IMG/VR virus record: IMGVR_UViG_3300025395_000007
Source of the DNA: a virus
DNA length: 64,000 nt
Reading direction: 5' to 3' (one strand)
The notes beneath the pieces are model-generated. The model did no database searches. It saw nothing but the letters and a program-made list of their open reading frames with translations, and had not been told where the DNA came from. Made by a program: the position numbers and the translations under genes. This document shows positions 33,977-54,435 of this stretch, in pieces. Every line of letters starts with the position of its first letter. Position 1 is the first letter of the stretch.

Positions 33977-34200
33977 AAATCATACATATTAACAGAAACA
34001 TCATTCAACAAAATGCTAAACATAATAGAGAAGAGCCTGTTGTGCGTGTTGAAGAAAATGGTGTCGTTAAATATTGCATGGAAGTTGATATAAAAGGACC
34101 ATCGCGTATGGTCTATCGTCCAAATAAACCTAGAACATGTGGCGCAAAACTATGGATCGAAACTGATGCAGAAGTTGAATTAATAGGTGAAAAGCTTTGA
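33973..34200 (+). CDS. Hypothetical protein
   Basis: ATGA-coupled; IHINRN...CGAKLWIET. Confidence 0.7.
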   Translation: MKIIHINRNIIQQNAKHNREEPVVRVEENGVVKYCMEVDIKGPSRMVYRPNKPRTCGAKLWIETDAEVELIGEKL

Positions 34201-35903
34201 TACTTTTTAAAAAAATTAGATATAAAAATTTATTATCTACGGGAAATCTTTTTACTGAGATTGATTTGAACACTCATAACACTTCATTGATTGTTGGTGA
34301 GAACGGTGCTGGCAAATCAACCATCCTTGACGCTTTGTCTTTTGTAATCTTCGGTAAAGCATTCCGTAAGATTAATAAGGCGCAGCTGATCAATACCATA
34401 ACTCAAAAGAACCTTGTGGTTGAAGTTGAGTTTTCTATTGGTACAAATAACTATAAGATCATTCGTGGAACAAAGCCGAATATATTTGAGGTGTATCAAA
34501 ATGATATTATCCTCAATCAATCTGCAGAAATGAAAGACTATCAAGAAATTCTTGAGAAGCAGATTATGAAAGTTAATCATAAATCTTTCTGTCAGGTTGT
34601 AGTTCTTGGGTCAGCTACCTTCCAATCTTTCATGCAGTTGAACACAGCGCAACGTCGCGAGATTATTGAAGACCTTCTTGATCTTCAAATCTTTACAACG
34701 ATGAATTCTCTTTTGAAAGATAAAGTTCTTATCAATAGTGATTCACTTAACACTTGTTCTAATAATAAGAAAATTGCAGAAGAAAAGATTAAACTTATTC
34801 GTGAACATATGCAAGAGATGCAAAATAATAATGATGCTATTATTGCAGAAAAGAAAGAGCGCATTGAAGAAACTAAATCACAGTTAGAAATTTTAACGGC
34901 TCAACAAAATAACATTAATGAGGAAGCTAAAGAATTAGCAAGCCAAACTACTAATCTTGAAACGCTTGAAAATAAAATGTCTAAGCTTCAATCTTTGAAG
35001 CATAAAATTGAAGCTAATCTTGCTATCGTAAATAAAGAAGTCGCTTTCTTTAATAGTCATGACAACTGCCCTACTTGTAAACAGGAAATTGATCATGATT
35101 TTAAATGTGAAGCTATTGATACAAGAAACACTAACATTACTGAAATTCAAGATGGCCTTGATAAACTATCAGCTGAATATGACAAAGTAAACTCTGAAAT
35201 AAAAAATATGAATCTTATTAATAATCAGGTTCGTCAAAAAGTAATAAACTATCACGTTATTGATACTAAAATTAATTCATTGAATACCTATGTTAAACAA
35301 CTTAACAATGAAATTAATTCAATTCAAAAAACTGTAGAAGAACAGGATAATACAAAGATTGGAGATCTTGAAAAAGAATTCTCTGATATCGAGAAAACAC
35401 ATAGTGAGCTTTCTGAAGAAAGGCAGCTTCTTAATGCAGCTGGTGTTTTACTAAAAGATGGCGGTATTAAATCTAAGATCATTAAACAGTATATCCCTGT
35501 TATCAATAAACTGATTAACAAATATCTTTCCGCCATGGAGTTTATGTGTCAGTTTGAACTAGATGAAAACTTCAACGAAACTATTAAGTCTCGTTATAGG
35601 GATGTGTTTAGTTACGAGAGTTTCTCTGAAGGCGAAAAAATGCGTATCGATCTTGCTATCCTGTTTACATGGAGAGCGGTTTCGAAACTTCGTAACTCTA
35701 TCAACACCAACCTTCTTATCATGGATGAGGTATTCGATAGCTCATTGGATTCGAATGGTACAGAAGAATTTTTAAAGATATTAAATAGCTTGACTTTTGA
35801 CACAAATACGTTTATAATAAGTCATAAGACTGATCAACTTTTCGATAAATTCGAACGAGTGATTAAGTTTGAAAAGCATAAGAATTTTTCAAGGATAGCT
35901 TAA
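34197..35903 (+). CDS. gp46: Recombination ATPase gp46 (Rad50/SbcC-like)
   Basis: GENGAGKST, CPTC zinc hook, FSEGEK, DEVFD. Confidence 0.96.
   Translation: MILFKKIRYKNLLSTGNLFTEIDLNTHNTSLIVGENGAGKSTILDALSFVIFGKAFRKINKAQLINTITQKNLVVEVEFSIGTNNYKIIRGTKPNIFEVYQNDIILNQSAEMKDYQEILEKQIMKVNHKSFCQVVVLGSATFQSFMQLNTAQRREIIEDLLDLQIFTTMNSLLKDKVLINSDSLNTCSNNKKIAEEKIKLIREHMQEMQNNNDAIIAEKKERIEETKSQLEILTAQQNNINEEAKELASQTTNLETLENKMSKLQSLKHKIEANLAIVNKEVAFFNSHDNCPTCKQEIDHDFKCEAIDTRNTNITEIQDGLDKLSAEYDKVNSEIKNMNLINNQVRQKVINYHVIDTKINSLNTYVKQLNNEINSIQKTVEEQDNTKIGDLEKEFSDIEKTHSELSEERQLLNAAGVLLKDGGIKSKIIKQYIPVINKLINKYLSAMEFMCQFELDENFNETIKSRYRDVFSYESFSEGEKMRIDLAILFTWRAVSKLRNSINTNLLIMDEVFDSSLDSNGTEEFLKILNSLTFDTNTFIISHKTDQLFDKFERVIKFEKHKNFSRIA
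35790..35818 (+). promoter_or_regulatory. Intragenic sigma70-type promoter in the gp46 3' end
   Basis: TTGACT-17-TATAAT. Confidence 0.6.
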
Positions 35904-36475
35904 TGTTTGAAACTGTTGTAATTGACGATATCGTGGATACTGTAAAACAAAAACATATCCACGATATGTTAATGACTGCTGACTGGAAATTCCTTATGGA
36001 TGTTAGTGGTGTGCAAAATACATATCCATCGCATGGTTTTGCTCATGTTTTAAAATATCCAAATGGATTACTTTCTCCTTTGTATGAGGAAATCAGCCCT
36101 CATATTTTAGATTCTATTTCTAGTGGCAATTATAAAATTAAAGAGAACTATTATAACCGTTCTTTCCTTCAGCTGCCATTAGCAGCAAAATATATGAAAG
36201 AACACAATGGCATTCATGTGGATCTTCCAAAAGAAATTCCACATGTAGCTTGTGTTTATTATGTAAATAATTCAGACGGTGATACCATTATTTACGAGCA
36301 AACTATTAACGATACTCCAGGCGGCTCGAATAATGTTCAACTCATTGAACATAAAAGAGTTGAACCAAAGCGTGGTCGTATAGTTATGTTTGATGGATCT
36401 AGGTATCACTGTAGCAGTCAACCAACGATTAACTATCGTTGTATCATTAACTTCGATTTAATTATGGAACAATAA
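35903..36475 (+). CDS. 2OG-Fe(II) oxygenase
   Basis: HVD...YYVNNSDGDT...FDG..YH.S...R..INF. Confidence 0.85.
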   Translation: MFETVVIDDIVDTVKQKHIHDMLMTADWKFLMDVSGVQNTYPSHGFAHVLKYPNGLLSPLYEEISPHILDSISSGNYKIKENYYNRSFLQLPLAAKYMKEHNGIHVDLPKEIPHVACVYYVNNSDGDTIIYEQTINDTPGGSNNVQLIEHKRVEPKRGRIVMFDGSRYHCSSQPTINYRCIINFDLIMEQ

Positions 36476-36476
36476 T

Positions 36477-36953
36477 ATGGAATTAGTACCAGCCAACGAT
36501 CCAATCTTAACTAAAGTTTGCGAAACTTTTGATTTTCTTAATCCTCCATTTGACCCTGTTGAATTTTCTCAAGAACTTATTAAGTTTATGTATAGTAAAA
36601 ATGGAGTTGGTTTAGCAGCGAATCAGGTTGGTGTTCCATATCGTATCTTTGCTATGAGAGCAGCCCCTGAAAATTTTGTTTGTTTTAATCCTAAGATTAT
36701 TATGCCAGGAACTGATGAGATTGTTCTTGAAGAAGGATGCTTGACTTTTCCCAAATTATTAGTTAAGATAAAGCGACCTCAACATATTCGTGTTCGATTT
36801 AATACACCGAACGGAGATACATTGACAAAACAGTTTACAGGATTATCTGCTCGTATCTTTCAACATGAACTAGATCATCTTGACGGAATTGTATTTTATA
36901 ATAAAGCAAATCGGTTTCATCGCGAACAAGCATTGAAGAATTGGAAAAAATGA
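36477..36953 (+). CDS. def: Peptide deformylase
   Basis: GVGLAANQVG, EGCLT, QHELDHLDG. Confidence 0.95.
   Translation: MELVPANDPILTKVCETFDFLNPPFDPVEFSQELIKFMYSKNGVGLAANQVGVPYRIFAMRAAPENFVCFNPKIIMPGTDEIVLEEGCLTFPKLLVKIKRPQHIRVRFNTPNGDTLTKQFTGLSARIFQHELDHLDGIVFYNKANRFHREQALKNWKK
36741..36769 (+). promoter_or_regulatory. Intragenic sigma70-type promoter within def
   Basis: TTGACT-17-TAAGAT. Confidence 0.45.
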
Positions 36954-37483
36954 ATATCTTCTATATTGATCATGACCCTATGCAAGCTGCCGAGTGGATG
37001 GTTGATAAACACGTAGTTAAAATGATTCTCGAATCAGCTCAACTACTTTCTACCGCCCATCGCGTTTTAGATGGCAGACAAATCGAAGGCCAATCAAAAA
37101 CTGGCAGAAAAGCTAAACGGTGGATTCTCGATGATGGTCGCGAAGATGTTTTATATTCTGCGACGCATATCAATCATCCATCTGCCGTTTGGTGTCGCGA
37201 ATCAATAGAGAATTATAACTGGCTGGTAGATCACTTCTTTGCTCTCATGAACGAATACACTTATCGTTATGAGAAGCAGCATAAGTGCTATGGTGAAATT
37301 TCATACATGCTTCAATCACCTCCGAAGAATTTAGAAAAATTCGATTGGACAACTATGCCTTCCTGTATGACAGATGAATATATTATATCAAATGATCCAA
37401 TAATCAATTACCGTAATTATTACAAAATCGGTAAAGCAAATTTACACAATTGGAAAAAACGTAAACCACCAGAATGGATTTAA
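36950..37483 (+). CDS. Conserved phage protein, pyrimidine-dimer glycosylase (DenV)-related family
   Basis: MNIFY.D.DP, DKHVVKMILESAQLLSTAH, H.NHP..VW, YRNYY. Confidence 0.6.
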   Translation: MNIFYIDHDPMQAAEWMVDKHVVKMILESAQLLSTAHRVLDGRQIEGQSKTGRKAKRWILDDGREDVLYSATHINHPSAVWCRESIENYNWLVDHFFALMNEYTYRYEKQHKCYGEISYMLQSPPKNLEKFDWTTMPSCMTDEYIISNDPIINYRNYYKIGKANLHNWKKRKPPEWI

Positions 37484-37484: not shown

Positions 37485-37679
37485 ATGGACGATATTAAAA
37501 TTAAACAAAGAATGAAAGAGCTTATGATACCCATTGATCAGCAGATTATGATGACTGATGATCCAGGTGAAGTTATGATGTTGGCTTGTGCAATGCTATC
37601 AACTGTAAAGCAAATATTTGATTTGCAACTTGGCGTTGATGGAAGAAATAAAATGTTTAGGAGTATTATGGATGAGTAA
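37485..37679 (+). CDS. Hypothetical protein
   Basis: Tightly packed ORF. Confidence 0.65.
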   Translation: MDDIKIKQRMKELMIPIDQQIMMTDDPGEVMMLACAMLSTVKQIFDLQLGVDGRNKMFRSIMDE

Positions 37680-38091
37680 TTGGTTTGAAGATGTAAAGGA
37701 CTTTCACCGCGCATTTGGTCAGCGTATTGGAGATAAGCCAGAATTGGCGCAAGATTTTACTGAGAGAAATCTTAGATGCAGTTTAATGGATGAAGAATTT
37801 AATGAATATATTGAAGCTGAAAATAAACACGATCTTATAAAAGTGGCTGATGCTCTAGCTGACATTATCTACATTGCTCTTGGCACAGCTGTATCATATG
37901 GCATTCCTCTTGATAAAGTATTCGAAGAAGTTCACCGTAGCAATATGGCGAAGCTCGTTGATGGTAAGGTTCTTCGTCGAGAAGATGGCAAGATTCAAAA
38001 GCCAAAGGGTTGGACTCCACCTGATATTGAATATGTGATAAAAAAGACACATGAAGAAAACACTTTACTTAATCAACAAATTGGTTTATAA
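37672..38091 (+). CDS. MazG-like/PRA-PH all-alpha NTP pyrophosphohydrolase
   Basis: EEFNE...ADALADIIY...VHRSNMAK...DGKIQKP.GW.PP. Confidence 0.88.
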   Translation: MSNWFEDVKDFHRAFGQRIGDKPELAQDFTERNLRCSLMDEEFNEYIEAENKHDLIKVADALADIIYIALGTAVSYGIPLDKVFEEVHRSNMAKLVDGKVLRREDGKIQKPKGWTPPDIEYVIKKTHEENTLLNQQIGL

Positions 38092-38092
38092 T
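38064..38092 (+). promoter_or_regulatory. Sigma70-type promoter for the modification operon
   Basis: TTTACT-17-TATAAT upstream of the TET/JBP-like gene. Confidence 0.6.
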
Positions 38093-38136
38093 AATGCATA
38101 TATACGATTATAGATATTATTATAACGGAGAGAAAA

Positions 38137-39441
38137 ATGGTTAGAACACTTGTTGTAAAAAAGCGCGATGTAGAACATGTCCTTGGTACATTCATCACCT
38201 GTGCAGATTATGCCGATGAAATCATTCAAGAAGATTGTGATTTGTATGCAGAATCGCTTGATGGAACTATCTCAGAAGAGAATATTATTTTCAAGTATCG
38301 CAAGAATGTTTTCAGTCAGGAAGAAATGGATGCGGCCTATACTGGTTTGAGAGATGCTGCGACTGAATCACAGAACCGTGGACTTGCCGCTGGTCCTCGT
38401 GGTGAACAACTTGGGGCTGAAGGTCGTGGTAATCGCGATTGGGTTAGCCCAGAACAAATTGAAATCCTTGCCTTTCTTGGTAGGCCATTAAATTCTTTTG
38501 ATGATGGTACTACAATCGAAACGATTAAGGAAAGTCATAAGAAAGGTTCTAAGGAAGAAACTCGCGGTCAGGTATGGCTTCGTTCTGCAGTATTGCAGAA
38601 GTATGAAGAATACCATGGATGGTTTGATAAGTGGCTTGCTGGTATTCATAACCTTTCGCGTGAAGAACAGATGGCTGAAGCAAAGCATATTGTTGAAAAT
38701 TATATTTCAGAAACAAATTATGCACAGTCAGTAATGTCTGGTATTGCTGGATACTTCGATCGTTATCCACGTATTCCATATGGTCGTGCAACTTCATATA
38801 CTGAAAAGAATTATGATAAGTTTGCGCTTGTTTTTCCATATCTTCGCAAACTTAATCAACAATTTAAAGAACTACTTCCTGTACGTTGGGGTGCACAAAA
38901 CGAATGTGCTCAAAAACTCGATCCTCGTTTTCGTATTGATGAAACTGTCTTTACGACATTGACAGTTAATCATAACTGGCGTACAGCTTGTCATAGAGAT
39001 GCTGGAGACTTACATGAAGGATTCTCGAATATTTGCGGCATTACTGGCCCTGAAGGTAAAGGTTGGAAGGGCGCTGAGTTCATTCTTCCAGAATTTGGTA
39101 TCGCTATTAATCTCCAGCCTGGAGATATGTTGCTCGTCAATAATCATGGTGGTATTCACGGTAATGATGCACTTATTGGAGATGATAATGATCGCCTTAC
39201 CTTGGTATCTTATTTCCGCGAAAAGATGCTTGATCTCAAAGCTTGGGATTACGAAAACCTCCGCAAGCAATATGTCGATGAAAGACGAATGAATAAAGAT
39301 CATCCACTTCATCGCCATCTTTGGAATGGTGTTTCTGCAAATATGTGGGATGAACAAGAATGGTATGACTATATGAAGAAGCATAATATTGCTGACCCAT
39401 ATGGCAAAGAAGCAGCAGCGAGCTTGGATTCATTCTTCTAA
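38137..39441 (+). CDS. TET/JBP-like 2OG-Fe(II) nucleic-acid pyrimidine dioxygenase
   Basis: SGIAGYFDRYPRIPYGR.T; FTTLTVN.N.RTACHRDAGD (HxD); PGDMLL...IHGN (H); RLTLVSYFRE (2OG-binding R). Confidence 0.82.
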   Translation: MVRTLVVKKRDVEHVLGTFITCADYADEIIQEDCDLYAESLDGTISEENIIFKYRKNVFSQEEMDAAYTGLRDAATESQNRGLAAGPRGEQLGAEGRGNRDWVSPEQIEILAFLGRPLNSFDDGTTIETIKESHKKGSKEETRGQVWLRSAVLQKYEEYHGWFDKWLAGIHNLSREEQMAEAKHIVENYISETNYAQSVMSGIAGYFDRYPRIPYGRATSYTEKNYDKFALVFPYLRKLNQQFKELLPVRWGAQNECAQKLDPRFRIDETVFTTLTVNHNWRTACHRDAGDLHEGFSNICGITGPEGKGWKGAEFILPEFGIAINLQPGDMLLVNNHGGIHGNDALIGDDNDRLTLVSYFREKMLDLKAWDYENLRKQYVDERRMNKDHPLHRHLWNGVSANMWDEQEWYDYMKKHNIADPYGKEAAASLDSFF

Positions 39442-40121
39442 TGTGTGGTGTGCTAGGTATAGCGATTAAAAATTTTACAAAGAAAGACCACGATTTAGTT
39501 CGTGGTCTTTTCATTCAATCTATGATCCGTGGTAAACATGCTAGTGGTGTTTCATATGTCAAAAACGGAATTGTAAATACAGTTAAAGAATCAATACCTG
39601 CAGAAGAGTTTATATTAAAACAAAATTTAGATAATTGGAGAAATGAAGATGGAAACCTTTATTGTATTGGTCATATTAGGTATTCTACTTCTGACTTGCG
39701 TTTTAATCAGCCCTTTGGAACTGATTTACTGGGCATTGTTCACAACGGAGTTATATCCCAAGAACCACCAGAAACTTGGGAAGAGAAATATGGATACAAA
39801 ACAGAAACTGCAAATGACTCAGAATTGATTTTGAAATGCTGGGAACAACATCAAAATCCTTTGAGCGTTTTTCCTGAAGCAAGCATGGCAGTTTGCGGTA
39901 TCAGTTACAATAAAAAATTAACTGCATTTAGAAATGCGGAAAGACCTTTGTATTATTACACTGATGAAAGGTCTAGTGTGTTTGCTTCAACTAAAGATAT
40001 TTTAAATCGTTCTGGTTTATCATCTGTAACTAAAACAAAAATGTATGAAGTTATTACAGTTGAAGATTTTAATCTGACACGGCTTCCTATGAATGACATT
40101 AATGTAGAGGACTTGCAATGA
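39441..40121 (+). CDS. Class II (Ntn) glutamine amidotransferase-like protein
   Basis: N-terminal MCG, RGKHASG, GHIRYST, NQP, HNG, NDSE. Confidence 0.88.
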   Translation: MCGVLGIAIKNFTKKDHDLVRGLFIQSMIRGKHASGVSYVKNGIVNTVKESIPAEEFILKQNLDNWRNEDGNLYCIGHIRYSTSDLRFNQPFGTDLLGIVHNGVISQEPPETWEEKYGYKTETANDSELILKCWEQHQNPLSVFPEASMAVCGISYNKKLTAFRNAERPLYYYTDERSSVFASTKDILNRSGLSSVTKTKMYEVITVEDFNLTRLPMNDINVEDLQ

Positions 40122-41002
40122 ATTACGATCCAAAAGATTATACATGGGGCTACGAAATTGAGTGGGGTGATATTGACAGGCGTACAATTATCCCTTCGCA
40201 TTTAGGTAAGTGGGAATTTGCTGAAACAGATATTGTTAATTTGAATGGCGAGTTTCGTGGCCTTGCATGCGATCCATTAGGTGAATCACCTCCAGTTGGT
40301 GGTGAAATTAATACAAAGCCAACTGCAACTTGGCAAGATCAAGTTGAACGTATTATGGAAATTAAAAAGCTCTTTACTGATTTAAAACAATCACCAACAG
40401 CTTCTTGTGTCAATCATGGTCATCTTCATGTCTATGTTCCTGGATTGAAAGATGATATTCCTGCATTGAAGAAGTTAGTTAAGTATATTCGAGACAATCA
40501 ACACATTACAATTGATAGATTATATCAGTACCGTCTTGATCCTCTTATGTCCAGTGCTAAAACTGCCAAGACATATTTGAAGTGGGATGGTGGTCGTCCA
40601 ATGCCCGACTATATGTGTAACAACATTATTAGTCTTACACAGGACTTCGAGCATTTTATTAAACTTCATGCGGCTGGTAAAGATGGTGTATCAATGGGTC
40701 GGCCATTCCGATATGCAATCAATACATATTGCATGAAACATACTGGAACAATTGAGTTCCGTTGTTTGCGTTCTTCAACAGAGCGTAGGGAAATTGAAGA
40801 CTCATTTAGGTTTGCGGAAAAGTTTATTGAAGCTGCATTAAATGATGGTCCACCAGTAGAAGATATTCTTAGCGAATATGATTATCAGTTTCCTAAATTT
40901 AATTACGACCATGAAATGTATCTCGGCTGGGAGAAAACAAAATATGATAAGTCAAGAGGCAATAAGCAACGTGAGTTCCTTTCAGTTGAGGCCAACGACT
41001 AA
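40118..41002 (+). CDS. Putative amidoligase (COOH-NH2 ligase / glutamate-cysteine ligase fold)
   Basis: GYEIE, GGEIN, HGHLHV, TIEFR motifs. Confidence 0.78.
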   Translation: MNYDPKDYTWGYEIEWGDIDRRTIIPSHLGKWEFAETDIVNLNGEFRGLACDPLGESPPVGGEINTKPTATWQDQVERIMEIKKLFTDLKQSPTASCVNHGHLHVYVPGLKDDIPALKKLVKYIRDNQHITIDRLYQYRLDPLMSSAKTAKTYLKWDGGRPMPDYMCNNIISLTQDFEHFIKLHAAGKDGVSMGRPFRYAINTYCMKHTGTIEFRCLRSSTERREIEDSFRFAEKFIEAALNDGPPVEDILSEYDYQFPKFNYDHEMYLGWEKTKYDKSRGNKQREFLSVEAND

Positions 41003-41498
41003 AACTGAATTCATTGCTTCTCTTACTGATTTAAAAGAAGATAAGTTTGCCAAAACATTCGTTGCTAAATGCAACATGATGGATGATTGGGATAAATGTA
41101 GGGGTGTGTGGATCGACGGTAGACTTGCAGGAGCTATCGTCGTTACCATTTCAAAACGTAAACCAATCACTGCTAATCTTCAACTTCTCCATACTTTCCA
41201 TGAGTTCAGAGGTAAGGGTGTTGCTCGTAAATTGTGCGAGTGGGCAAAGGATCATGCTATTGAAATGGATGCAGAATACTTTCGTGTTTCTGCGGAGTTT
41301 GATGCGGTTCCATTTTATGAGAAGTGTGGATTTAAATTCGTTTGCAAACAAAAAACAGCCAAGCTCGCCATGTTTAAACTTTCTGACCCAGATATTATTG
41401 ATGAATACATTTGGAAAACGATGAAGAAAAAAGGTAAAGGCGGATGCGTAGAGTGTTACGTTGATTATAAAGGTGTTGACTTTTTTCAAGAAGTATAG
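40944..41498 (+). CDS. GNAT-family N-acetyltransferase (start uncertain: 40944 or 40971)
   Basis: FRGKGVARKL (acetyl-CoA motif A) and AVPFYEKCGF (motif B). Confidence 0.88.
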   Translation: MISQEAISNVSSFQLRPTTKTEFIASLTDLKEDKFAKTFVAKCNMMDDWDKCRGVWIDGRLAGAIVVTISKRKPITANLQLLHTFHEFRGKGVARKLCEWAKDHAIEMDAEYFRVSAEFDAVPFYEKCGFKFVCKQKTAKLAMFKLSDPDIIDEYIWKTMKKKGKGGCVECYVDYKGVDFFQEV

Positions 41499-41504
41499 TA
41501 TAAT
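41476..41504 (+). promoter_or_regulatory. Sigma70-type promoter
   Basis: TTGACT-17-TATAAT. Confidence 0.75.
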
Positions 41505-41528
41505 ATCTATATAACTTAGGAGATTGTT

Positions 41529-42806
41529 ATGGATTACGATGCAATCGTTTACGGCTGGCGTAATATTGAAAATAAAATGATGTATGTGGGGTTCCATAAA
41601 ACCCAAGAAGAATTTGATGGATATGTCACTTCTTCCGAAAGCGAAGAACTTAGACATGCATGGTCACATGGTCTTTTAAATCGTACAATTCTTTATCGTG
41701 GAACTGTTTCCGAGTCTATCACTTTTGAGAATTTTATTCTTAAGAGTGTTGATGCTCGCGTCAATCCTATGTTTTATAACCGCTCGAATGGTGGCGGCGT
41801 AGGCTGTCAATCTTTTGATATCATAACAAAAGATATGAAGAAGATTGCAGAAAAGTGGTTAGGTGGTAATGACAATATCAATAAATTAAAGCGTGAATTT
41901 CTCGCTAATAAAAAATTGGTTAAGTCGATTAAGAAAAAGATCGAAGCAGGTCATTATGTTATCTTCGAAGAGAAGATAGAAAACCTTGTCAATCTTCCAC
42001 GCAACCAAGTTCGTTTGGTTGATTATGATCCTGATCATCTTCAAGAAATTACAGAGAGCATGCGATATGACCCAAAGGGTGCACGCAAATTAGTTTCTCC
42101 TGTAATTGTTTCTGTAGATGCAGAAGGATATAAACTAATCCTTGATGGCAATCATACCACAACTGCCGCATATAATGCCAAGTGGACAACCCTTCCTACA
42201 ATCTACATTAACAGTTCAGACTTCGAGGATAACCAAGCTAACTATAATGATTTTGGATTGTTGATGAACCATCATCCAAAGCGTAAAAAATCTAATACGA
42301 AAGAAGATTGTAAGAAAGCAATTATGAATCTTCTAGAGGTTTCTAAATTAGAAATCGGTTCATCTCAATTCCGCGAATGTTGTATTATTAATCTTGAAGA
42401 ATATTTCAGTAAGCCAACAATTACTGCAAATATTAATTCTGTGGCTACAATTTTAAAAGAGCAACAGGATATTATTAAATACAACTTTAAGAAGTATGGT
42501 AAATCTGATATTGAACAAATTACTAAAGGTTGCGAATATTTGAATCCAAATAAAGCGATTATTTCTATCACCTCTGATTCCTCATATAATGCAGGGGTTG
42601 GCGCTATTCTTAATAAGATGGGCGGTCTGGATTGTTGGGAAGGAATTATGCTTGTCAATCATAGAAATATGCACGAATACGATCGACGTAATGAACATCA
42701 TTCTAAACTTATGAAAGCACTTGAACGTATTCATCCAAATGCAAAAGTTGAAGTTCAATACCTACCTTCCTTCATTGATATGAAAAATAATGAACTCCAT
42801 CAGTAA
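41529..42806 (+). CDS. GIY-YIG-like N-terminal domain fused to a ParB/Srx-like domain
   Basis: IVYGWRN...MYVGFH...DGYVTSS...E...FYNRSNG; central PVIV...LILDGNHT..AA. Confidence 0.6.
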   Translation: MDYDAIVYGWRNIENKMMYVGFHKTQEEFDGYVTSSESEELRHAWSHGLLNRTILYRGTVSESITFENFILKSVDARVNPMFYNRSNGGGVGCQSFDIITKDMKKIAEKWLGGNDNINKLKREFLANKKLVKSIKKKIEAGHYVIFEEKIENLVNLPRNQVRLVDYDPDHLQEITESMRYDPKGARKLVSPVIVSVDAEGYKLILDGNHTTTAAYNAKWTTLPTIYINSSDFEDNQANYNDFGLLMNHHPKRKKSNTKEDCKKAIMNLLEVSKLEIGSSQFRECCIINLEEYFSKPTITANINSVATILKEQQDIIKYNFKKYGKSDIEQITKGCEYLNPNKAIISITSDSSYNAGVGAILNKMGGLDCWEGIMLVNHRNMHEYDRRNEHHSKLMKALERIHPNAKVEVQYLPSFIDMKNNELHQ

Positions 42807-43776
42807 ACAACGTAAACAAGATTTCATAAATTGGTATAAGTGGTCGCTGTCCATTAAGGATTGCGACCCCGCCATTTTTATGACCAATTATCTTTTTGAT
42901 AGATTTGAGCATAACAAAGAACAAAAACTTTGGATTGCTTGGATCTATGGTACAACGTATTATCTTCCAACAACATGGGTTATATGGAATGAATTCCCAG
43001 ACTTCGAACTCGTCGGGCTTGAACGACTCCGCGAATGGAATAATAACAATTACAAACGGCTCCGTTATCAAACTGACACCAAGTGGAACAAAGGTCATCT
43101 TCCAGCCCAGTTCGAGTCGTACAAAAACTGGGTGGGAGATAAAACTCAACGCGAAGCATTTGCGCCCTATCTCATCGGAGAGCCAAGAGAAAACTTTGAC
43201 CGACTCTGGCCAGAAATAAACAAGCTCCATAAATTCGGAAGATATTCTTCTTGGTTCTATATGCAAACACTTAAACAGTGCTGCGGTTTATCAATTGAAC
43301 CGAAGAATCTAATGTTGGAAGATCATGACGGTTCGCGTTCACATCGTAATGGTCTTTGTATGGCTCTTGGTCTAGATGAATGGTACGATCAAAAACTTAA
43401 CGCGCAACAGATTAATTATCTCGACGGCGAAGCTTACTACATACTTCAAGAGGTAAAGAAAGAATTTCCCACTACTGATTATTTCGATATGGAAACTTGT
43501 CTTTGTTCGTTCAAAAAACTATTCCGTAAAACACGTGGACGTTACCTTGGGTATTATATTGATAGACAGGCAGAAGAAATTTCGCAGTGCGCATCAGATG
43601 ACTGGAAAGGTATTGACTGGCAACCGCTTTGGGATGCCAGAATTGAAACTTTAGAAAATAAACTGTTGACTAATCGCATAGATAATAGTAGAATGAGTCT
43701 ATACCTAGATTCTAACGTGTTGGATGCCACTGGACTTTTCGAAAAGAAAAGTGTTGGTCTTGAGGGGTTTTTTTAA
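42790..43776 (+). CDS. Alpha-glutamyl/putrescinyl-thymine pyrophosphorylase (clade 2-like) / amino acid:DNA transferase
   Basis: HhH-glycosylase-like LHKFGRYSSWFYMQTL; ETCLCSFKK...RYLGYYIDR; adjacent P-loop kinase. Confidence 0.75.
   Translation: MNSISKQRKQDFINWYKWSLSIKDCDPAIFMTNYLFDRFEHNKEQKLWIAWIYGTTYYLPTTWVIWNEFPDFELVGLERLREWNNNNYKRLRYQTDTKWNKGHLPAQFESYKNWVGDKTQREAFAPYLIGEPRENFDRLWPEINKLHKFGRYSSWFYMQTLKQCCGLSIEPKNLMLEDHDGSRSHRNGLCMALGLDEWYDQKLNAQQINYLDGEAYYILQEVKKEFPTTDYFDMETCLCSFKKLFRKTRGRYLGYYIDRQAEEISQCASDDWKGIDWQPLWDARIETLENKLLTNRIDNSRMSLYLDSNVLDATGLFEKKSVGLEGFF
43666..43694 (+). promoter_or_regulatory. Intragenic sigma70-type promoter upstream of the kinase
   Basis: TTGACT-17-TAGAAT. 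Confidence 0.5.
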
Positions 43777-43896
43777 TGAAAGTTATTGAGATTTGCAGTG
43801 TTCAAAATGAAAACGAATCATAGCAGGTTTAACATAGAGTCAGTGGGACTGCCATCCGTGACTGACAATATATTTATAACATGGGAGATTTTAAAG

Positions 43897-44433
43897 ATGC
43901 GTGTGATAGCGATTGGTGGTGAGCCTGGATCTGGTAAATCCACATTAATGTGGAAGTTGATTAATCATTATCAACCGAAGCCTATGTATGATGCATATAA
44001 GTTAGTTCCATATCTTCAGAAGGATAACATTTATATCCTTGGTAAGTATGAAGAAGGTGAAGTGTTTTCTGGCACTGATAGGATGAGCATGGCTGTCCAG
44101 CCAGAAGCTATTAAATTTTTAAGCACATTAAATGATAGCTCAGTTGTTCTTTACGAAGGCGATCGTTTGTTTACATCTTCATTCCTTGAAGATTGCGCTG
44201 AAAAATATACTCTTGAGATTATCTATCTTTCAACCTTAAAGGAAGTTAGAACCACGCGATACGCAGAGCGTGGTAGCAATCAAAATGAAACTTGGTTGCG
44301 TGGTCGTGAGAGTAAAATTGGTAACATTCTAACTAATTTCGATTTGATGTTTTTAACAGAGAAGTTTTTAAACAACAATCTAGATGAACAGAAAGTAGTA
44401 TTTGATAAAATTGTGGAGAAGATAAATGAATAA
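43897..44433 (+). CDS. P-loop nucleotide kinase, putative hydroxymethylpyrimidine-DNA kinase
   Basis: GGAG RBS; IGGEPGSGKST, GTD, EGDRL, R..RGSNQ...W..GR..K. Confidence 0.78.
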   Translation: MRVIAIGGEPGSGKSTLMWKLINHYQPKPMYDAYKLVPYLQKDNIYILGKYEEGEVFSGTDRMSMAVQPEAIKFLSTLNDSSVVLYEGDRLFTSSFLEDCAEKYTLEIIYLSTLKEVRTTRYAERGSNQNETWLRGRESKIGNILTNFDLMFLTEKFLNNNLDEQKVVFDKIVEKINE

Positions 44434-44869
44434 TAATGGAGGTTATGTAGTAGGTGCTATTGGTTCTACCAATTTTGGGCATTATCCTACTGGATCAAAT
44501 GGAGGAGTTGATCCTAATTTTGATGTAATTTACGATGAATCTGGAGGAGTTATCGGCACAGCTGGTAAATTAATCAGTACACAAAATAAAAATATTTCGT
44601 ATAAATATGGCGAAGATACCTATATTCAAGAAATTTCTGACTATATAGATAAGACATATGGTCAACATTACTCAAAAAATCAATTTCAAGCAACAGAGTT
44701 TATTATTGACTCTGGACATGGCACAGGATTTTGTATTGGTAATGTTTTGAAATATGCTCAGCGTTACGGTAGAAAAGGCACCCGTGATGAATGGCGAAAA
44801 GACCTAATGAAAGTGATTCACTACGCAATGATGCAATTACATGTCCATGATAATGAAGGAAGTAAATAA
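44426..44869 (+). CDS. DUF3310-like protein
   Basis: HY...GFCIGNVLKYAQRYGRK...DLMKVIHY. Confidence 0.75.
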   Translation: MNNNGGYVVGAIGSTNFGHYPTGSNGGVDPNFDVIYDESGGVIGTAGKLISTQNKNISYKYGEDTYIQEISDYIDKTYGQHYSKNQFQATEFIIDSGHGTGFCIGNVLKYAQRYGRKGTRDEWRKDLMKVIHYAMMQLHVHDNEGSK

Positions 44870-45723
44870 TGGAAATTAATATTAATATTGAAGATCTAAG
44901 AAAGCGTAAGCTTTTTGTTGCTACACCAATGTATGGTGGTATGTGTGCAGGTATGTTTGCACGGTCAGTTGCTGACCTCTCTGCAATTTGTACACAATAT
45001 GGAATTCCGCTTCAGTTTTATTTCTTGTTCAACGAGTCTTTGATTACTCGCGCAAGAAATTACTGCGTTGATGAATTCATTCGGTCAGGCGCTGATCATC
45101 TTATGTTCATTGACTCTGATATTGGATTCAATCCTCAGGATGTTATTGCATTGATGGCTCTTCAAGCTCAAGATGAAAAGTATGATATCATCGGTGGTCC
45201 ATATCCTAAGAAGTGCATCAGCTGGGAAAAGATTAAATTGGCAGTTGATAAGGGTATCGCTGACGAAGATCCAAATGTTCTCGAGAAGTTCGTTGGTGAT
45301 TATGTCTTCAATCCAAAGGGTGGCCAGCAGTCTATCTCTATCGCTGATCCATGCGAAGTTCTTGAAATTGGTACTGGCTTCATGATGATCTCGAAGCAAG
45401 CTATGTCTAAGTTCTGTGATTTCTATCCTCAGTATATGTACAAGCCTGATCACGTTCGTACTGAACACTTCGATGGCACTCGTAAGATCATGATGGCTTT
45501 CCAAGCTGAAGTCGATCCTAAGTCTGAGCGTTATCTTTCAGAAGATTATTGGTTCTGTCAGAAGGCTCAGGAAGCTGGTCTTAAGACTTGGTTCTGCCCA
45601 TGGATGAAGATGCAACATGTTGGCACTTATATCTTTGGTGGTTCGCTCGCCGACCTCGCATCGATCGGTGCATCTGCTACTGCTGACCCAAGTGCGCTTG
45701 GTGGTAAAGCAAAGAAACTTTGA
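44869..45723 (+). CDS. GT-A-fold glycosyltransferase-like protein
   Basis: ATPMYGG, ESLITRARN, MFIDSDI (DxD), GTGFMMI, YLSEDYWFC. Confidence 0.75.
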   Translation: MEININIEDLRKRKLFVATPMYGGMCAGMFARSVADLSAICTQYGIPLQFYFLFNESLITRARNYCVDEFIRSGADHLMFIDSDIGFNPQDVIALMALQAQDEKYDIIGGPYPKKCISWEKIKLAVDKGIADEDPNVLEKFVGDYVFNPKGGQQSISIADPCEVLEIGTGFMMISKQAMSKFCDFYPQYMYKPDHVRTEHFDGTRKIMMAFQAEVDPKSERYLSEDYWFCQKAQEAGLKTWFCPWMKMQHVGTYIFGGSLADLASIGASATADPSALGGKAKKL

Positions 45724-50509: not shown

Positions 50510-50585
50510 GCGGTCTTAGTGTTGAGGGTCAGCACATGAGTTTGTGGCACTCAAAGAACTGGTTCGATCCCAGTAGACCGTACCA
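50510..50585 (+). tRNA. tRNA-His(GTG), no G-1, G1:U72, A73
   Basis: Manual cloverleaf; anticodon loop TTGTGGC; CCA encoded. Confidence 0.9.
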
Positions 50586-50590
50586 AAGAA

Positions 50591-50746
50591 TTGCAGGGGA
50601 TGGATACCTGTAAATCACCGATGACAAGAGTTGTGTATTGATTATCGGGTATAGTCGCAGCCACTGGGGTCTGCTTGACACAAACGTCTTATCCAATTAA
50701 ATCTACTCCGCGAAAAGGGAGATGCTGGATGGCAGTAACCAGCAAC
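50591..50746 (+). ncRNA. Unknown multi-hairpin RNA
   Basis: GC-richer non-coding spacer with stems TTGCAGG/CCTGTAA, TTGTGT/ACACAA, GCAG/CTGC, TGCTGG/CCAGCA. Confidence 0.4.
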
Positions 50747-50753
50747 GAATTTA

Positions 50754-50842
50754 GGGGTGGCTGCTCAGACGGCGGATGGGCACGGGGCTGTAAACCTCGC
50801 ACATAGGAAACGGAGTTGGTTCGAATCCAACCCGCCCCACCA
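50754..50842 (+). tRNA. tRNA-Tyr(GTA)
   Basis: Loop CTGTAAA, long variable region, CCA. Confidence 0.88.
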
Positions 50843-50847
50843 TATAC

Positions 50848-50923
50848 GAACCCATAGCACAATTGGTGGTGCAAGATGCTTTTAACTTCTAGGTTACAGG
50901 TTCAAATCCTGTTGGGTTCACCA
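50848..50923 (+). tRNA. tRNA-Lys(TTT)
   Basis: Loop CTTTTAA; one T-T mismatch in the anticodon stem; CCA. Confidence 0.85.
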
Positions 50924-51010
50924 ATGTTGTGTTGGTCGAGATTCCATTAACACTCGACAAGTCCTAGTCTGCCTGTAGTATACTGCAGTTTAGATCGGGC
51001 ACCAAAGTTT

Positions 51011-51115
51011 GCTTCCATGAACTAATTGCTTCTAGTACTGGTACCGGAAAAAAGCATTGCCCAAGTTCTCCTCGTCGTGGGGAGTATGTAGGTTGGAATC
51101 CTACTGGGAGCTCCT
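51011..51115 (+). ncRNA. tRNA-like RNA with greatly expanded D-loop
   Basis: Acceptor GCTTCCA/TGGGAGC, T-arm GTAGG-TTGGAAT-CCTAC, D-stem GAACT/AGTTC, non-canonical anticodon arm. Confidence 0.5.
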
Positions 51116-51125
51116 AACTAAATAT

Positions 51126-51202
51126 GGACTACTAGCTCAATAGGTTAGAGCATCTGACTCTTAATCAGAGGGTTCGCAGTTCGATTCTGCGGTAGTCTAC
51201 CA
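51126..51202 (+). tRNA. tRNA-Lys(CTT)
   Basis: Loop CTCTTAA; CCA. Confidence 0.93.
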
Positions 51203-51215
51203 ATTTGGAGATGTT

Positions 51216-51857
51216 ATGGCAAATATCGGCATTTATAAACACCATCCTTACTGTTCTGAACAATCTTCTTCTGGTGTTGTAGATGCTATAAACCATTTCC
51301 ATAAATGTAGTTATTTTAATGAAACTGATATTACTCCTGAGTTTTTAAGTCAATTTGATATGATAATATTTCCTGGAGGTATTGGTGACTCAGAAGAATT
51401 CTTTAATTTATTTCATTGGAGAAAAGCTGCAATAGTAAATGATTATGTAAAATCTGGAGGAAAATATCTTGGAATATGCATGGGTGCTTATTGGGCTGGT
51501 TCTCGTTACTTTGATATTATCGATAGCTTAGATGCAGTTCAATATATTAAACAGCCTGATGCATTAATAAAACGTAGTTATGGAACTGTTGTCCCAGTAA
51601 TGTGGGAAGGTAATAATGAAATAATATATTTCTATGACGGATGTACTTTTGATGGAGACATATCTAAAGCACAAATCATAGGAAGTTATGGTTCGGGTCA
51701 TCCTGCTGCGATAATTCAAGGTAATATAGGTTTGATTGGTCCGCATCCAGAGGCAAATGAGTTTTGGTTTGATACATGGAAATATATGCCAGATTATTTT
51801 CATCGTGGTCACCATCATAAGTTGCTAAGAGAGTTTGTTAATAAATTGCTTAGATAG
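51216..51857 (+). CDS. BPL_N-like class I glutamine amidotransferase-fold protein
   Basis: FPGG, GGKYLGICMGAY, GPHPE (Cys-His-Glu triad). Confidence 0.8.
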   Translation: MANIGIYKHHPYCSEQSSSGVVDAINHFHKCSYFNETDITPEFLSQFDMIIFPGGIGDSEEFFNLFHWRKAAIVNDYVKSGGKYLGICMGAYWAGSRYFDIIDSLDAVQYIKQPDALIKRSYGTVVPVMWEGNNEIIYFYDGCTFDGDISKAQIIGSYGSGHPAAIIQGNIGLIGPHPEANEFWFDTWKYMPDYFHRGHHHKLLREFVNKLLR

Positions 51858-51923
51858 CTCAGTTGGTAGAGCAGTGGTTTGAAGAACCACGTGTCGGCGG
51901 TTCGACCCCGTCTCTAAGCACCA
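51848..51923 (+). tRNA. tRNA-Phe(GAA)
   Basis: Loop TTGAAGA; CCA; overlaps the upstream stop codon. Confidence 0.92.
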
Positions 51924-51937
51924 TATAGGAGTATATC

Positions 51938-52150
51938 ATGTTTACAGTTGAACAAGTATTACAATGGCAAGGGATCAGCGTAGTTGATAGTCTTGTAGCA
52001 TCTGATTTGTGTAAGTCTAAATCAGATGCTCGACGTATGATTGATCAGGGCGCTATTAAGGTAGATGATATGAAAGTAACTGATCATAATGCAGTTGTAT
52101 TATTCAGTCCAGATAAAACAAAACATGTATTAGTACAAATTGGCGCATAG
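51938..52150 (+). CDS. Stand-alone S4 RNA-binding domain resembling the TyrRS C-terminus
   Basis: LV.SDLCKSKSDARRMIDQGAIKVD..KV.D; AGGAG RBS. Confidence 0.8.
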   Translation: MFTVEQVLQWQGISVVDSLVASDLCKSKSDARRMIDQGAIKVDDMKVTDHNAVVLFSPDKTKHVLVQIGA

Positions 52151-52215
52151 CTCAGAGGTAGAGCACTGTCCTGATAAGACAGGGGTGGTTGGATCGTTAC
52201 CAACTGTGCCAACCA
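52141..52215 (+). tRNA. tRNA-Ile(GAT)
   Basis: Loop CTGATAA; atypical T-loop ATCGTTA; CCA. Confidence 0.88.
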
Positions 52216-52220
52216 ATTAT

Positions 52221-52294
52221 GGTGCGTTCGGCTAATGGTAGGCCTCTTGATTTTCGCTCAGGCAACAGGAGTTCGATTCTCCTACGCACTACCA
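52221..52294 (+). tRNA. tRNA-Glu(TTC)
   Basis: Loop TTTTCGC; CCA. Confidence 0.85.
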
Positions 52295-52301
52295 ATACAA
52301 T

Positions 52302-52380
52302 CAGAGTGTGGGGAAGTCTGGTCGTTCCCGCCTCCCTTGGAAGGAGGAGCTCGGTGGTTCAAATCCACCCACTTTGACCA
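52302..52380 (+). tRNA. tRNA-Pro(TGG)
   Basis: C1:G72, A73; loop CTTGGAA; CCA. Confidence 0.9.
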
Positions 52381-52384
52381 TTAA

Positions 52385-52482
52385 AGGCAGACCCACAGAT
52401 AGCTGCCTCCGCCATACGCGAAACGTGGGATGGGCTGCGTATGCGGGGTTTGGTGGTTTCCCTGACACAAGAAAAACCACCA
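52385..52482 (+). ncRNA. Three-hairpin RNA with possible kissing loops
   Basis: Stems AGGCAG/CTGCCT, CATACGC/GCGTATG, TGGTGGTTT/AAACCACCA; loop CCCAC is complementary to loop GTGGG. Confidence 0.5.
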
Positions 52483-52487
52483 CTATA

Positions 52488-52808
52488 TTATTTCTTTTTT
52501 AATGATGCTACTAGATCAGCAAGAGCCTGATGATCTTCTTGAATATCTTTTAAAATTTCTACAAGATGTTCGTGATCTTCTTCTGCACGTTCTTCTGCTG
52601 CTTTACCAGCAAGGTTTTGGCCTACCATAATAAGAGGTAGTGCAACAAGCTGGATAATACCGCCAGATACGTAAAATACAAAATCTTGTAGAGATGGTAT
52701 TACAGTTGGTAACATTGACCAGATAAAAAAGAAATATACGCACCAAATGCTTGACATCCAAGCAACAGTTTTAAGAGCAATTGAGTCATTAATTTTAGAT
52801 AAGTTCAT
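52488..52808 (-). CDS. DUF1003-like small membrane protein
   Basis: AGGAG RBS before ATG 52808; two hydrophobic helices, LPLIMVGQN, then coiled coil. Confidence 0.75.
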   Translation of the reverse strand: MNLSKINDSIALKTVAWMSSIWCVYFFFIWSMLPTVIPSLQDFVFYVSGGIIQLVALPLIMVGQNLAGKAAEERAEEDHEHLVEILKDIQEDHQALADLVASLKKK

Positions 52809-52846
52809 TTTTATTCTCCTTAATAAGGTTATTTGATATTTATCTG

Positions 52847-52874
52847 TTGACTTATTCTCTAAATAAGGTATACT
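52847..52874 (+). promoter_or_regulatory. Sigma70-type promoter re-initiating the tRNA array
   Basis: TTGACT-16-TATACT. Confidence 0.7.
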
Positions 52875-52890
52875 AAGTAATATAGAGTTT

Positions 52891-52965
52891 TGGGAAGTGG
52901 CGCAGCGGTAGCGCAGGTGACTGTTAATCACTTGGTCGTAGGTTCGAATCCTACCTTTCCAGCCA
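52891..52965 (+). tRNA. tRNA-Asn(GTT)
   Basis: U1:A72, G73; loop CTGTTAA; CCA. Confidence 0.93.
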
Positions 52966-52970
52966 ATTCT

Positions 52971-53046
52971 GCCCTTATAGCTCATTTGGTAGAGCAGTTG
53001 CTTTGTAAGCATCAGGTGGTCAGTTCGAATCCGACTGGGGGCACCA
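52971..53046 (+). tRNA. tRNA-Thr(TGT)
   Basis: Loop TTTGTAA; CCA. Confidence 0.9.
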
Positions 53047-53049
53047 TAC

Positions 53050-53280
53050 TGTAGCGAAAGGGTGGCGTCCACCGTTCAGACCTCTATGCCCTATGCTGGC
53101 CAGCATCTATCGGGAGTGATTAGAGAAAAGAGCCGCTACATTGAGTCGCTGTCAGTACTGTGGGAAGTGCAGATGGTCAACACTAGGACACCGTTCGAAT
53201 CGGACCAGCGACAACCTCGGGAGAGCTGTTTGGAAACACTCAGCAATATCTTGAAGGTTCAAACCCTTCTCTCCCGCCCA
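53050..53280 (+). ncRNA. Three tandem structured RNAs, two of them tRNA-like
   Basis: TGTAGCG/CGCTACA (53050..53140); GTCGCTG/CAGCGAC with a TTCGAAT loop (53145..53216); CGGGAGA/TCTCCCG plus T-arm and CCA (53218..53280). Confidence 0.55.
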
Positions 53281-53285
53281 ATTTT

Positions 53286-53359
53286 GCTCTCTTAGTTAAA
53301 TGGTATAACAGATGTTTAGTAATCATCTATTGGCAGTTCGATTCTGTCAGGGAGCACCA
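53286..53359 (+). tRNA. tRNA-Thr(AGT), rare A34 anticodon
   Basis: G1:C72, C2:G71; loop TTAGTAA; T-T at 31:39; CCA. Confidence 0.8.
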
Positions 53360-53447
53360 CTATGTACCACCCACGCCTCTCGACGTGTAAGATGCGCAAC
53401 AGGGATCTGGAAATAACCAGTGACGACTCCAACGGGTCAACGGTCTC

Positions 53448-53455
53448 TATAAATA
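53448..53455 (+). promoter_or_regulatory. T4-type late promoter
   Basis: TATAAATA before an AAGGAG RBS. Confidence 0.7.
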
Positions 53456-53472
53456 TCTCTAAGGAGATATCA

Positions 53473-53706
53473 ATGCCTGTACCCTGCGATTACCTCGCGG
53501 TGCAGTGGGATAATACTACATGGGTTCGATATGAAATGTGTCAGTTCGCTAAACAAAATGATGGCATTGACGGTGTTTATATCGGTGCACGATTAGAATT
53601 TAGACCTATAAAATCTCTAGATCAAGGCAAATGTCTTGATATGGATAAAAAAACACATGCTCGTTATAAGATCGGCGATAAAGAATGGGTGTGTTTAATT
53701 AATTGA
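53473..53706 (+). CDS. Hypothetical protein (77 aa)
   Basis: AAGGAG RBS, then MPVPCDY. Confidence 0.65.
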   Translation: MPVPCDYLAVQWDNTTWVRYEMCQFAKQNDGIDGVYIGARLEFRPIKSLDQGKCLDMDKKTHARYKIGDKEWVCLIN

Positions 53707-53759
53707 GGCAGTGCGTAGGAATTGGATACTGCGGAGTTTTAAAATTTAATACGTTATAC

Positions 53760-53833
53760 GGCTTGATGGCAGAATGATGATGCAAAGGTCTGCAAAACCT
53801 TCTATCCGAGTTTGATTCTCGGTCAAGCCTCCA
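53760..53833 (+). tRNA. tRNA-Cys(GCA)
   Basis: U73; loop CTGCAAA; A19/U56 variant; CCA. Confidence 0.87.
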
Positions 53834-53840
53834 ACTAATA

Positions 53841-53932: not shown

Positions 53933-53943
53933 GGCGCTATAAA

Positions 53944-54018: not shown

Positions 54019-54019
54019 A

Positions 54020-54027
54020 TATAAATA
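54020..54027 (+). promoter_or_regulatory. T4-type late promoter
   Basis: TATAAATA. Confidence 0.7.
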
Positions 54028-54429: not shown

Positions 54430-54435
54430 TATATT

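Follow-up and report, generated by a model that had tools for sequence, protein, structure and literature searches.

The closest described relatives of the gene cluster considered here belong to pathways that hypermodify thymine in phage DNA. In the case of Pseudomonas phage PaMx11, the pathway to 5-acetylaminomethyl-2'-deoxyuridine (5-AcNmdU) comprises an amino acid:DNA transferase (AADT, gp46), a lyase dependent on flavin adenine dinucleotide (FAD, gp47), a GNAT acyltransferase (gp48) and a kinase (gp49): 5-hydroxymethyluracil (5hmU) is made before replication, the amine comes from glycine and the FAD lyase, and the 5-aminomethyluracil so formed is acetylated by the GNAT. A related gene set occurs in metavirome contigs in which TET_JBP takes the place of dUMP hydroxymethylase alongside 5-HMUDK and aGPT-Pplase2 (Lee et al. 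2022, PMC8989533, Fig. 2 sequences 17-25); the same paper also describes contigs with an amidoligase and a glutamine amidotransferase (GATase), and assigns no role to either. Thymine dioxygenases of the 5mYOX clade C1 are "consistently linked" with GATases, P-loop kinases and AADTs, oxidize thymine, and in many cases need a ParB partner (O'Toole et al. 2026, PMC13229309), a study that tests the oxidation step only. The GATase and the amidoligase therefore stand flagged in published work as unexplained partners of thymine hypermodification. Here, we analyze a 64-kb stretch of viral DNA (64,000 nucleotides of IMG/VR record IMGVR_UViG_3300025395_000007, hereafter the window) that carries such a cluster between the phage genes gp46 and gp45.

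The functional cassette consists of six genes, encoding a TET/JBP dioxygenase, a class II GATase, an amidoligase with a glutamine synthetase/glutamate-cysteine ligase (GS/GCL) fold, a GNAT, an AADT (aGPT-Pplase2) and a P-loop kinase, and it extends over 38137-44433, not over 37672-45723 as the initial annotation had it. That annotation did not recognize the combination from characterized pathways; the combination is in fact already published (PMC8989533, PMC13229309), the final base excepted, so that the locus is a further example of a described architecture. It has the same gene families as the metavirome contigs of Lee et al., who draw the same inference that TET makes 5hmU, and it shares with the clade C1 neighborhoods the TET/JBP, GATase, kinase and AADT genes and the Pfam profiles applied to them (PF12851, PF13522/13537, PF18751, PF18724, PF02195). 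In the literature searched, no paper was found that names the final base or a role for the GATase or ligase in such cassettes, and no mention was encountered there of glutamine-fed DNA amination or of DNA as the target of a GS-fold ligase.

That the cassette hypermodifies thymine is highly probable; for the full order of a five-step, post-replicative pathway, read from the sequences, we estimate a probability of roughly 0.55. The TET/JBP enzyme would oxidize thymine in DNA to 5hmU, as related phage enzymes have been shown to do, and the P-loop kinase would convert 5hmU to 5-phosphomethyluracil, a reaction shown for the kinases of M6 and ViI. The catalytic cysteine of the AADT would then expel the phosphate, with glutamine-derived ammonia from the GATase as the nucleophile, giving 5-aminomethyluracil in one step. 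In an ATP-dependent reaction, the ligase would couple this amine to a carboxylic acid (probably an amino acid, for example glutamate), and the GNAT would acetylate the remaining amine. More tentatively, we propose that the AADT is a glutamine-dependent DNA aminotransferase writing 5-aminomethyluracil, that the ligase then builds a previously undescribed N-acyl (e.g., N-acetyl-aminoacyl) thymine on DNA, and that enzymes of the pathway are carried by the sliding clamp. PaMx11 shares the kinase, an AADT with the ETxxC motif and the GNAT, and 5-aminomethyluracil is the proposed common intermediate, whereas the window has TET, GATase and an extra ligase: GATase and AADT would replace glycine transfer and FAD lyase, and ligase and GNAT would decorate the resulting amine. 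Neither an FAD-dependent lyase nor a dUMP hydroxymethylase was found in the window cluster or in G001, a relative of 162 kb (98% complete) that carries the full cassette. In relatives lacking the ligase, the GNAT would arrive by a different route at the base of PaMx11, 5-acetylaminomethyluracil. The modification probably serves to protect the DNA from host nucleases. If the proposal is true, both the glutamine-fed DNA amination and the amide ligase for DNA would be new to enzymology and useful as labeling tools.

Relatives were collected around three anchors (AADT, TET and ligase), and the counts refer to 90 non-redundant loci spanning GATase to AADT, a sample biased by the ligase-centered search. 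The order GATase-ligase-GNAT-slot-AADT is found in 83 of them (81 plus two, if two loci with an extra gene before the ligase are counted apart). The remaining seven comprise three without a ligase, two with two ligases, and two in which a glycosyltransferase-like gene, a divergent ligase and a low-molecular-weight (LMW) phosphatase stand where the GNAT would be. TET was found in 78 of the 79 GATase loci having room for it, and the kinase comes after the AADT in nearly every locus extending far enough. Because the gene order recurs in 90 loci, in other neighborhoods (beside genes for a helicase or a polymerase) and in phages that are not T4-like, the linkage exceeds chance: the six genes form a cassette moving as a unit. 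With hundreds of contigs, this cassette is common among uncultured T4-like phages of aquatic origin. With the families and catalytic residues intact and the genes linked in relatives, the post-replicative hypermodification pathway envisaged in the initial annotation is upheld.

Around the 434-aa TET, TET-centered loci show a fixed frame, MazG-TET-cassette-DUF3310-GT-A-gp45, in which the cassette is interchangeable; the alternatives are based on a TAGT glycosyltransferase, a glycosyltransferase with a phosphatase, a methyltransferase-fold protein with AADT and kinase, or an AADT with inositol-1-phosphate synthase. The same TET frame with swapped cassettes points to TET as a general handle-maker and to MazG, DUF3310 and GT-A as scaffold, and each interchangeable cassette implies a different thymine modification. 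Loci L086-L158 display at least six cassettes after one TET: TAGT alone, two glycosyltransferases, a glycosyltransferase with a HAD phosphatase, the methyltransferase-fold/AADT/kinase type, AADT with inositol-1-phosphate synthase, phosphatase and kinase, and the present six-gene type. The closest cultured carriers of the window TET are Caulobacter phage Cr30 (39.5%) and Stenotrophomonas phage DLP6 (45.5%), in both of which a GATase was searched for and not found. Cr30 also has AADT and kinase, but its AADT, unlike that of the window, is followed by a TAGT-like gene and inositol-1-phosphate synthase. The succession of AADT and inositol-1-phosphate synthase is seen in Cr30 (L001:9887-13334, with the TAGT-like gene), L121 and L136, and Cr30 may, judging from its genes, carry an inositol-linked thymine.

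The TET/JBP gene (38137-39441, plus strand) encodes a 434-aa 5mYOX dioxygenase, predicted to be a DNA thymine hydroxylase, with a clamp-like C-terminal tail (Pfam Tet_JBP, PF12851, 8.4e-19). The iron ligands of the HxD...H motif (H286, D288, H341) and the 2-oxoglutarate-binding R353 are kept in at least 97% of 136 homologs. The window TET is linked with GATase, P-loop kinase and AADT without an adjacent C5 methylase, which is the neighborhood trait of the ParB-dependent clade C1 enzymes, and it is 36% identical to the TETs of loci L202 and L208, where the six-gene cassette occurs in its small-ParB form. The window differs from this form in TET length (434 vs 306-312 aa), in lacking a small ParB by the TET and in having clamp-like tails. 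A small ParB (nucleotide-binding plus dimerization domains) beside TET was not found in the window cluster, a ParB search of the relative G002 (86% complete) gave no match, and the only ParB domain of the window lies in an optional GIY-YIG fusion, unlike the ParB-dependent type of O'Toole et al. Because the small ParB is absent from the cluster, the window cassette is not filed as ParB-dependent.

No C5 methylase or dUMP hydroxymethylase was present among the window open reading frames (ORFs), with 64 kb of the genome visible. G001 has ThyX; a family search found no C5 methylase in it, and no dUMP hydroxymethylase was found in a search in which two control phages scored positive. Because ThyX is present and neither of the other enzymes was found in G001, thymine in finished DNA is the likely substrate. 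The idea that an oxygenase supplies the hydroxymethyl handle for the kinase and AADT is supported: the TET family assignment and residues hold, no dUMP hydroxymethylase was found, and the published clade C1 enzymes oxidize thymine.

The GATase gene (39441-40121, plus strand; GATase_6, 1.6e-9) encodes a stand-alone class II (Ntn) glutaminase domain, the proposed ammonia donor for the AADT. Residues C2, R30, G31, R80, T83, N102, G103 and D126 are invariant in 35 homologs, which makes the class II Ntn signature complete (N-terminal Cys, oxyanion Asn-Gly, and glutamine-binding Arg, Thr and Asp), and the profile matches PurF (6lbp). The AADT (AADT/ADDT, aGPT-Pplase clade 2; 42790-43776, plus strand), which ends in a clamp-like tail, matches ADDT (PF18724) at 1.3e-26; its invariant E235, T236 and C239 (ETxxC) and FGR at 149-151 correspond by motif to E243, T244, C247 and "FGPW" of PaMx11 gp46. 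Neither the AADT sequence nor its profile matched any PDB entry in sequence searches. The P-loop kinase (43897-44433, plus strand), a predicted 5hmU DNA kinase with an N-terminal Walker A motif, matches Ploopntkinase3 (PF18751, 2.2e-12), the profile applied to such clusters by O'Toole et al. (PMC13229309), and not the HMUDK_HMUD1 profile of M6-type kinases. Both proteins for which the initial annotation had made family membership decisive, at 42790 and 43897, accordingly match the aGPT-Pplase and kinase families. The kinase starts at ATG 43897; a 215-aa reading was rejected, the relatives being ~176-184 aa long. The 120-bp spacer between AADT and kinase (43777-43896) has a possible hairpin, and the closest relative, L006, is without it.

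Gene fusions argue for a GATase that works with the AADT. Among the 17 longer GATase homologs, 14 are GATase-AADT fusions, two are joined to GNAT and one to ligase; the GATase always comes first in GATase-AADT fusions, so its N-terminal Cys stays free. Three loci (L250, L251 and L252) combine such a fusion with a 5-hydroxymethyldeoxyuridine (5-hmdU) kinase and a thymidylate-synthase-family gene; no ligase was detected in them, and no GNAT, FAD or pyridoxal phosphate match beside the fusion. A fourth fusion is followed by a GNAT-like gene, and three lineages (L032/L034/L080) keep both GATase and GNAT but have no ligase. Long AADT fusions were searched for among proteins >612 aa, and two were found. 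Because 14 of the 17 fusions are GATase-AADT, some without detected tailoring genes, the GATase would feed the AADT, and on these sequence grounds it most likely works at the amination step rather than in a downstream side-chain trio. The ligase/amidotransferase/acetylase trio of the initial annotation is thereby reduced: ligase and GNAT keep their tailoring role, and the GATase is better paired with the AADT.

The amidoligase (40118-41002, plus strand) is a carboxylate-amine ligase of the GS/GCL fold. Sequence evidence is weak (Pfam E 0.026; Amidoligase_2, PF12224, 14.8 bits, under the curated cut-off of 22, which several relatives pass), and Foldseek alone gave only matches with E>0.001; the fold match nevertheless confirms the assignment. 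The structural model (pLDDT 92.9) matches 1tt4 with VIA Z 10.4 (rmsd 4.7, 217 aligned), and the best 17 of 48,161 chains (Z 8.4-10.4) are all glutamine synthetases, glutamate-cysteine ligases or PafA-type proteins. Its metal and ATP motifs are invariant: GxExE (G11, E13, E15), E63, HxH (H102, H104), R198 and EFR (E213, F214, R215). Relatives are fused to 5-hmdU kinases, GNAT, LMW phosphatase, TAGT and GATase, and one protein joins ligase, GNAT and kinase; the fusions with kinases, GNAT, LMW phosphatase and TAGT tie the family to base modification and suggest that different ligase subtypes add different acids. The GNAT gene (40941-41498, plus strand; Acetyltransf_10, 1.2e-11) overlaps the ligase end, its start being uncertain (40878-40987). 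GNATs fall into three subtypes that track ligase type or ligase absence. In L242:4321-7936, a PanD-like aspartate decarboxylase gene lies directly 5' of GATase-AADT-kinase 2-ligase; there, beta-alanine could be the ligase substrate.

Phage Simon and L246 combine AADT, an FAD oxidoreductase resembling PaMx11 gp47, and the ligase; no GATase was found in either, and no FAD-lyase homolog in any GATase locus. Because the ligase co-occurs with the FAD lyase type that makes 5-aminomethyluracil, the ligase would act on the amine. In Simon (PQ683277; L159:4864-12543) these genes lie in an unannotated M6/PaMx11-like cluster with LMW phosphatase-like, kinase and dUMP hydroxymethylase-like genes. The Simon ligase, used as a query, matched no further phages or viral contigs, and Simon is a cultured source for the ligase's product. 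Taken with the fusions, such co-occurrence turns the puzzle of the GATase and amidoligase into a testable proposal.

Several observations weigh against the proposed pathway. The GATase lies directly 5' of the ligase in 83 of the 90 loci, in a sample biased by the ligase-centered search, and GATase-ligase fusions (P0085, P0151) and GATase-GNAT fusions exist. GATase-linked AADTs form no supported clade in a quick unfinished tree (support 5). The mutual exclusion of GATase and FAD lyase rests on two FAD loci only. Some ligase homologs have no AADT nearby, namely three copies in L241 and one next to queF/queC in Vibrio phage 2.275.O. The C5-methylase negative in G001 is not absolute, since a family search on contigs may overlook a gene: with PF13522, the GATase known to be in G001 went undetected, and that search was redone with an alignment. 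No cultured phage carrying the six-gene cassette was found. A predicted complex of GATase and AADT scored 0.28, the mark being 0.32, and counts neither for nor against the pathway.

The GATase-ligase adjacency and the two GATase-ligase fusions suit best a pathway in which the AADT adds an amino acid, as all characterized AADTs take amino acids or polyamines, the ligase amidates its carboxylate with GATase ammonia, and the GNAT acetylates the amine. This arrangement, which stands close to the trio of the initial annotation, we consider unlikely: L032/L034/L080 and L249-L252 have the GATase but no ligase, Simon and L246 have the ligase but no GATase, and GATase-AADT fusions outnumber GATase-ligase fusions 14 to 1 among the longer homologs. 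In ergothioneine synthesis, EgtA and EgtC attach and then remove a gamma-glutamyl group, and the Ntn protein might likewise be a hydrolase rather than an ammonia donor: the ligase would make a soluble gamma-glutamyl-protected amine (or the AADT would transfer glutamine), the AADT would attach it, and the Ntn enzyme would cleave off the glutamyl or amide group before acetylation. The GCL-like ligase fold and the lack of a clamp tail on both GATase and ligase are consistent with such a scheme, and the conserved Ntn residues, which would bind the alpha-amino acid end, could not tell glutamine from a gamma-glutamyl amide. Nonetheless, GATase-AADT fusions occur with no ligase nearby, the kinase is likewise tailless though it must act on DNA, and the ligase accompanies the FAD lyase, whose product is an amine bound to DNA; we regard the scheme as distinctly less probable than the preceding one.

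Two further readings concern the targets of the enzymes, and both are improbable. If only TET, kinase and AADT (with GATase) modify DNA, ligase and GNAT would act on tRNA, protein or a small molecule; the ligase homologs in L241 and beside the deazaguanine genes of L160, together with the 24 tRNA genes of the window, fit this, but ligase fusions with 5-hmdU kinases and with TAGT exist, ligase, GNAT and kinase are united in a single protein in one case, and both genes lie inside the swappable cassette. Slightly less probable still is that TET acts on 5-methylcytosine, with the methylase elsewhere in the genome or in the host, and that the product is a cytosine derivative. Purified clade C enzymes do oxidize 5-methylcytosine and thymine comparably in vitro, the window shows 64 kb of the genome, and some sister cassettes carry methyltransferase-fold genes; against this, no C5 methylase was found in the window or G001, and AADTs and such kinases are known only on 5hmU (PMC8989533). 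Thymine hypermodification through 5-aminomethyluracil remains the preferred reading. As to the ligases away from any AADT, the three paralogs in L241:7001-11741 (220-kb contig) are neighbors of gp46 and an EF-G gene, and neither TET nor AADT occurs within 7 kb; in L160:7866-13074 (Vibrio phage 2.275.O), the homolog is directly 5' of queF, queC, Ntn hydrolase and folE genes. The ligase family may, from this gene context, also tailor 7-deazaguanines.

The C-terminal tails may bear on how the enzymes reach DNA. T4 gp43, gp55 and gp33 carry such a tail. At the C-terminus, 138 of 143 TETs and 76 of 119 AADTs have a hydrophobic-acidic-x-aromatic-aromatic motif, compared with none of 108 GATases and none of 111 ligases; among the 71 window ORFs, it ends only TET and AADT. 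It is absent in the non-T4 loci L202/L208, and the DNA polymerase of a relative ends in the same motif. A looser pattern occurs in 38 of 95 GNATs but also in 19 of 97 kinases. T4 alpha-glucosyltransferase binds gp45 (PMC13216743), and TET and AADT, judging by their tails, probably ride the gp45 clamp.

The cassette lies in a run of ten intact ORFs between gp46 (34197-35903) and gp45, all of them on the plus strand and most directly adjoining or overlapping the next, as the initial annotation had described. Its calls of NTP pyrophosphatase, TET/JBP, Ntn amidotransferase, GNAT, aGPT-Pplase, P-loop kinase and DUF3310 rest on Pfam matches over cut-off, and the linkage it expected in relatives is seen in the 90 loci. 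Of its pathway gene set, the six cassette genes belong; MazG, DUF3310 and GT-A stand beside all cassette types alike, and 42 of 90 loci lack GIY-YIG/ParB or have another gene in its place. MazG, DUF3310 and GT-A were accordingly rejected as pathway members, being kept whichever cassette follows TET. The MazG/PRA-PH NTP pyrophosphatase gene (37672-38091, plus strand; Pfam 7.5e-22) precedes TET with any cassette and stands after regA in Cr30 and DLP6. The DUF3310 gene (44426-44869, plus strand; Pfam 6e-10) follows all cassette types and also adjoins dUMP hydroxymethylase genes in L250 and L251. The GT-A-like gene (44869-45723, plus strand), the scaffold member before gp45, is likewise kept with all cassette types; the gene is present as annotated, and its identity remains weak (Pfam E 0.018; phrog_1574, of unknown function). 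It occurs in phages phiM12, phiN3 and phiM7 and Ochrobactrum phage OC, in which no match to the window TET was found.

The slot before the AADT holds an optional 425-aa protein gene (41529-42806, plus strand) with GIY-YIG, ParB/Srx and C-terminal alpha/beta domains. Weak by Pfam, the GIY-YIG/ParB call is confirmed structurally for both domains, with residues 3-91 aligning to I-TevI (Z 7.3, rmsd 3.0, 86 aligned) and residues 144-251 to a ParB nucleotide-binding domain (Z 10.1, rmsd 2.4, 94 aligned). In the GIY-YIG domain, Y8, G21 and E67 are invariant and N84 nearly so. Across the 90 loci, the slot is occupied by GIY-YIG/ParB in 48, by a 490-aa gene in 11 and by a lone GIY-YIG in a few, and is empty in about one quarter; the stand-alone form in L055 matches phrog_314 "homing endonuclease". 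In the closest relative (L006:8541-10022; 87-95% identity for most neighbors), as in 10 other loci, the 490-aa gene, whose function is not assigned, replaces GIY-YIG/ParB. The identity of GIY-YIG/ParB to its homologs has a median of 28%, compared with 49-69% for cassette genes at the same loci, a divergence about double that of its neighbors. Because of its patchy presence, fast divergence and own promoter-like site, the gene behaves like a mobile or accessory nuclease gene. The protein may stimulate TET; as an obligatory ParB activator it was rejected, given the extra GIY-YIG domain and its absence or replacement in 42 of 90 loci. Two sigma70-like promoter sites, identified by consensus match only, lie on the plus strand before this gene (41476-41504, TTGACT-17-TATAAT, 11/12) and before TET (38064-38092, TTTACT-17-TATAAT, 10/12); the same pattern is found at 35790, 43666 (43666-43694, upstream of the AADT-kinase spacer), 46395 and 49111.

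The window as a whole is part of the genome of an aquatic T4-like phage, with tail, portal, capsid, gp55, gp47/46, gp45/44/62 and regA genes and 24 tRNA genes. By capsid, the nearest cultured phages are Stenotrophomonas phage DLP6 (66.5%) and the Sinorhizobium phages phiN3/phiM12 (~64%). Upstream of the cluster (35903-37483) lie genes for a 2-oxoglutarate-Fe(II) oxygenase, patchy among relatives, a peptide deformylase-like protein and a denV-like pyrimidine-dimer glycosylase. The minus strand at 61267-63644 carries genes for a GT1 glycosyltransferase, an NDP-sugar dehydratase and, recognized by eye only, an S-adenosylmethionine decarboxylase-like protein. The 24-tRNA-gene array (50510-57057) is interspersed with ORFs, including a BPL_N/class I GATase-like gene at 51216-51857.

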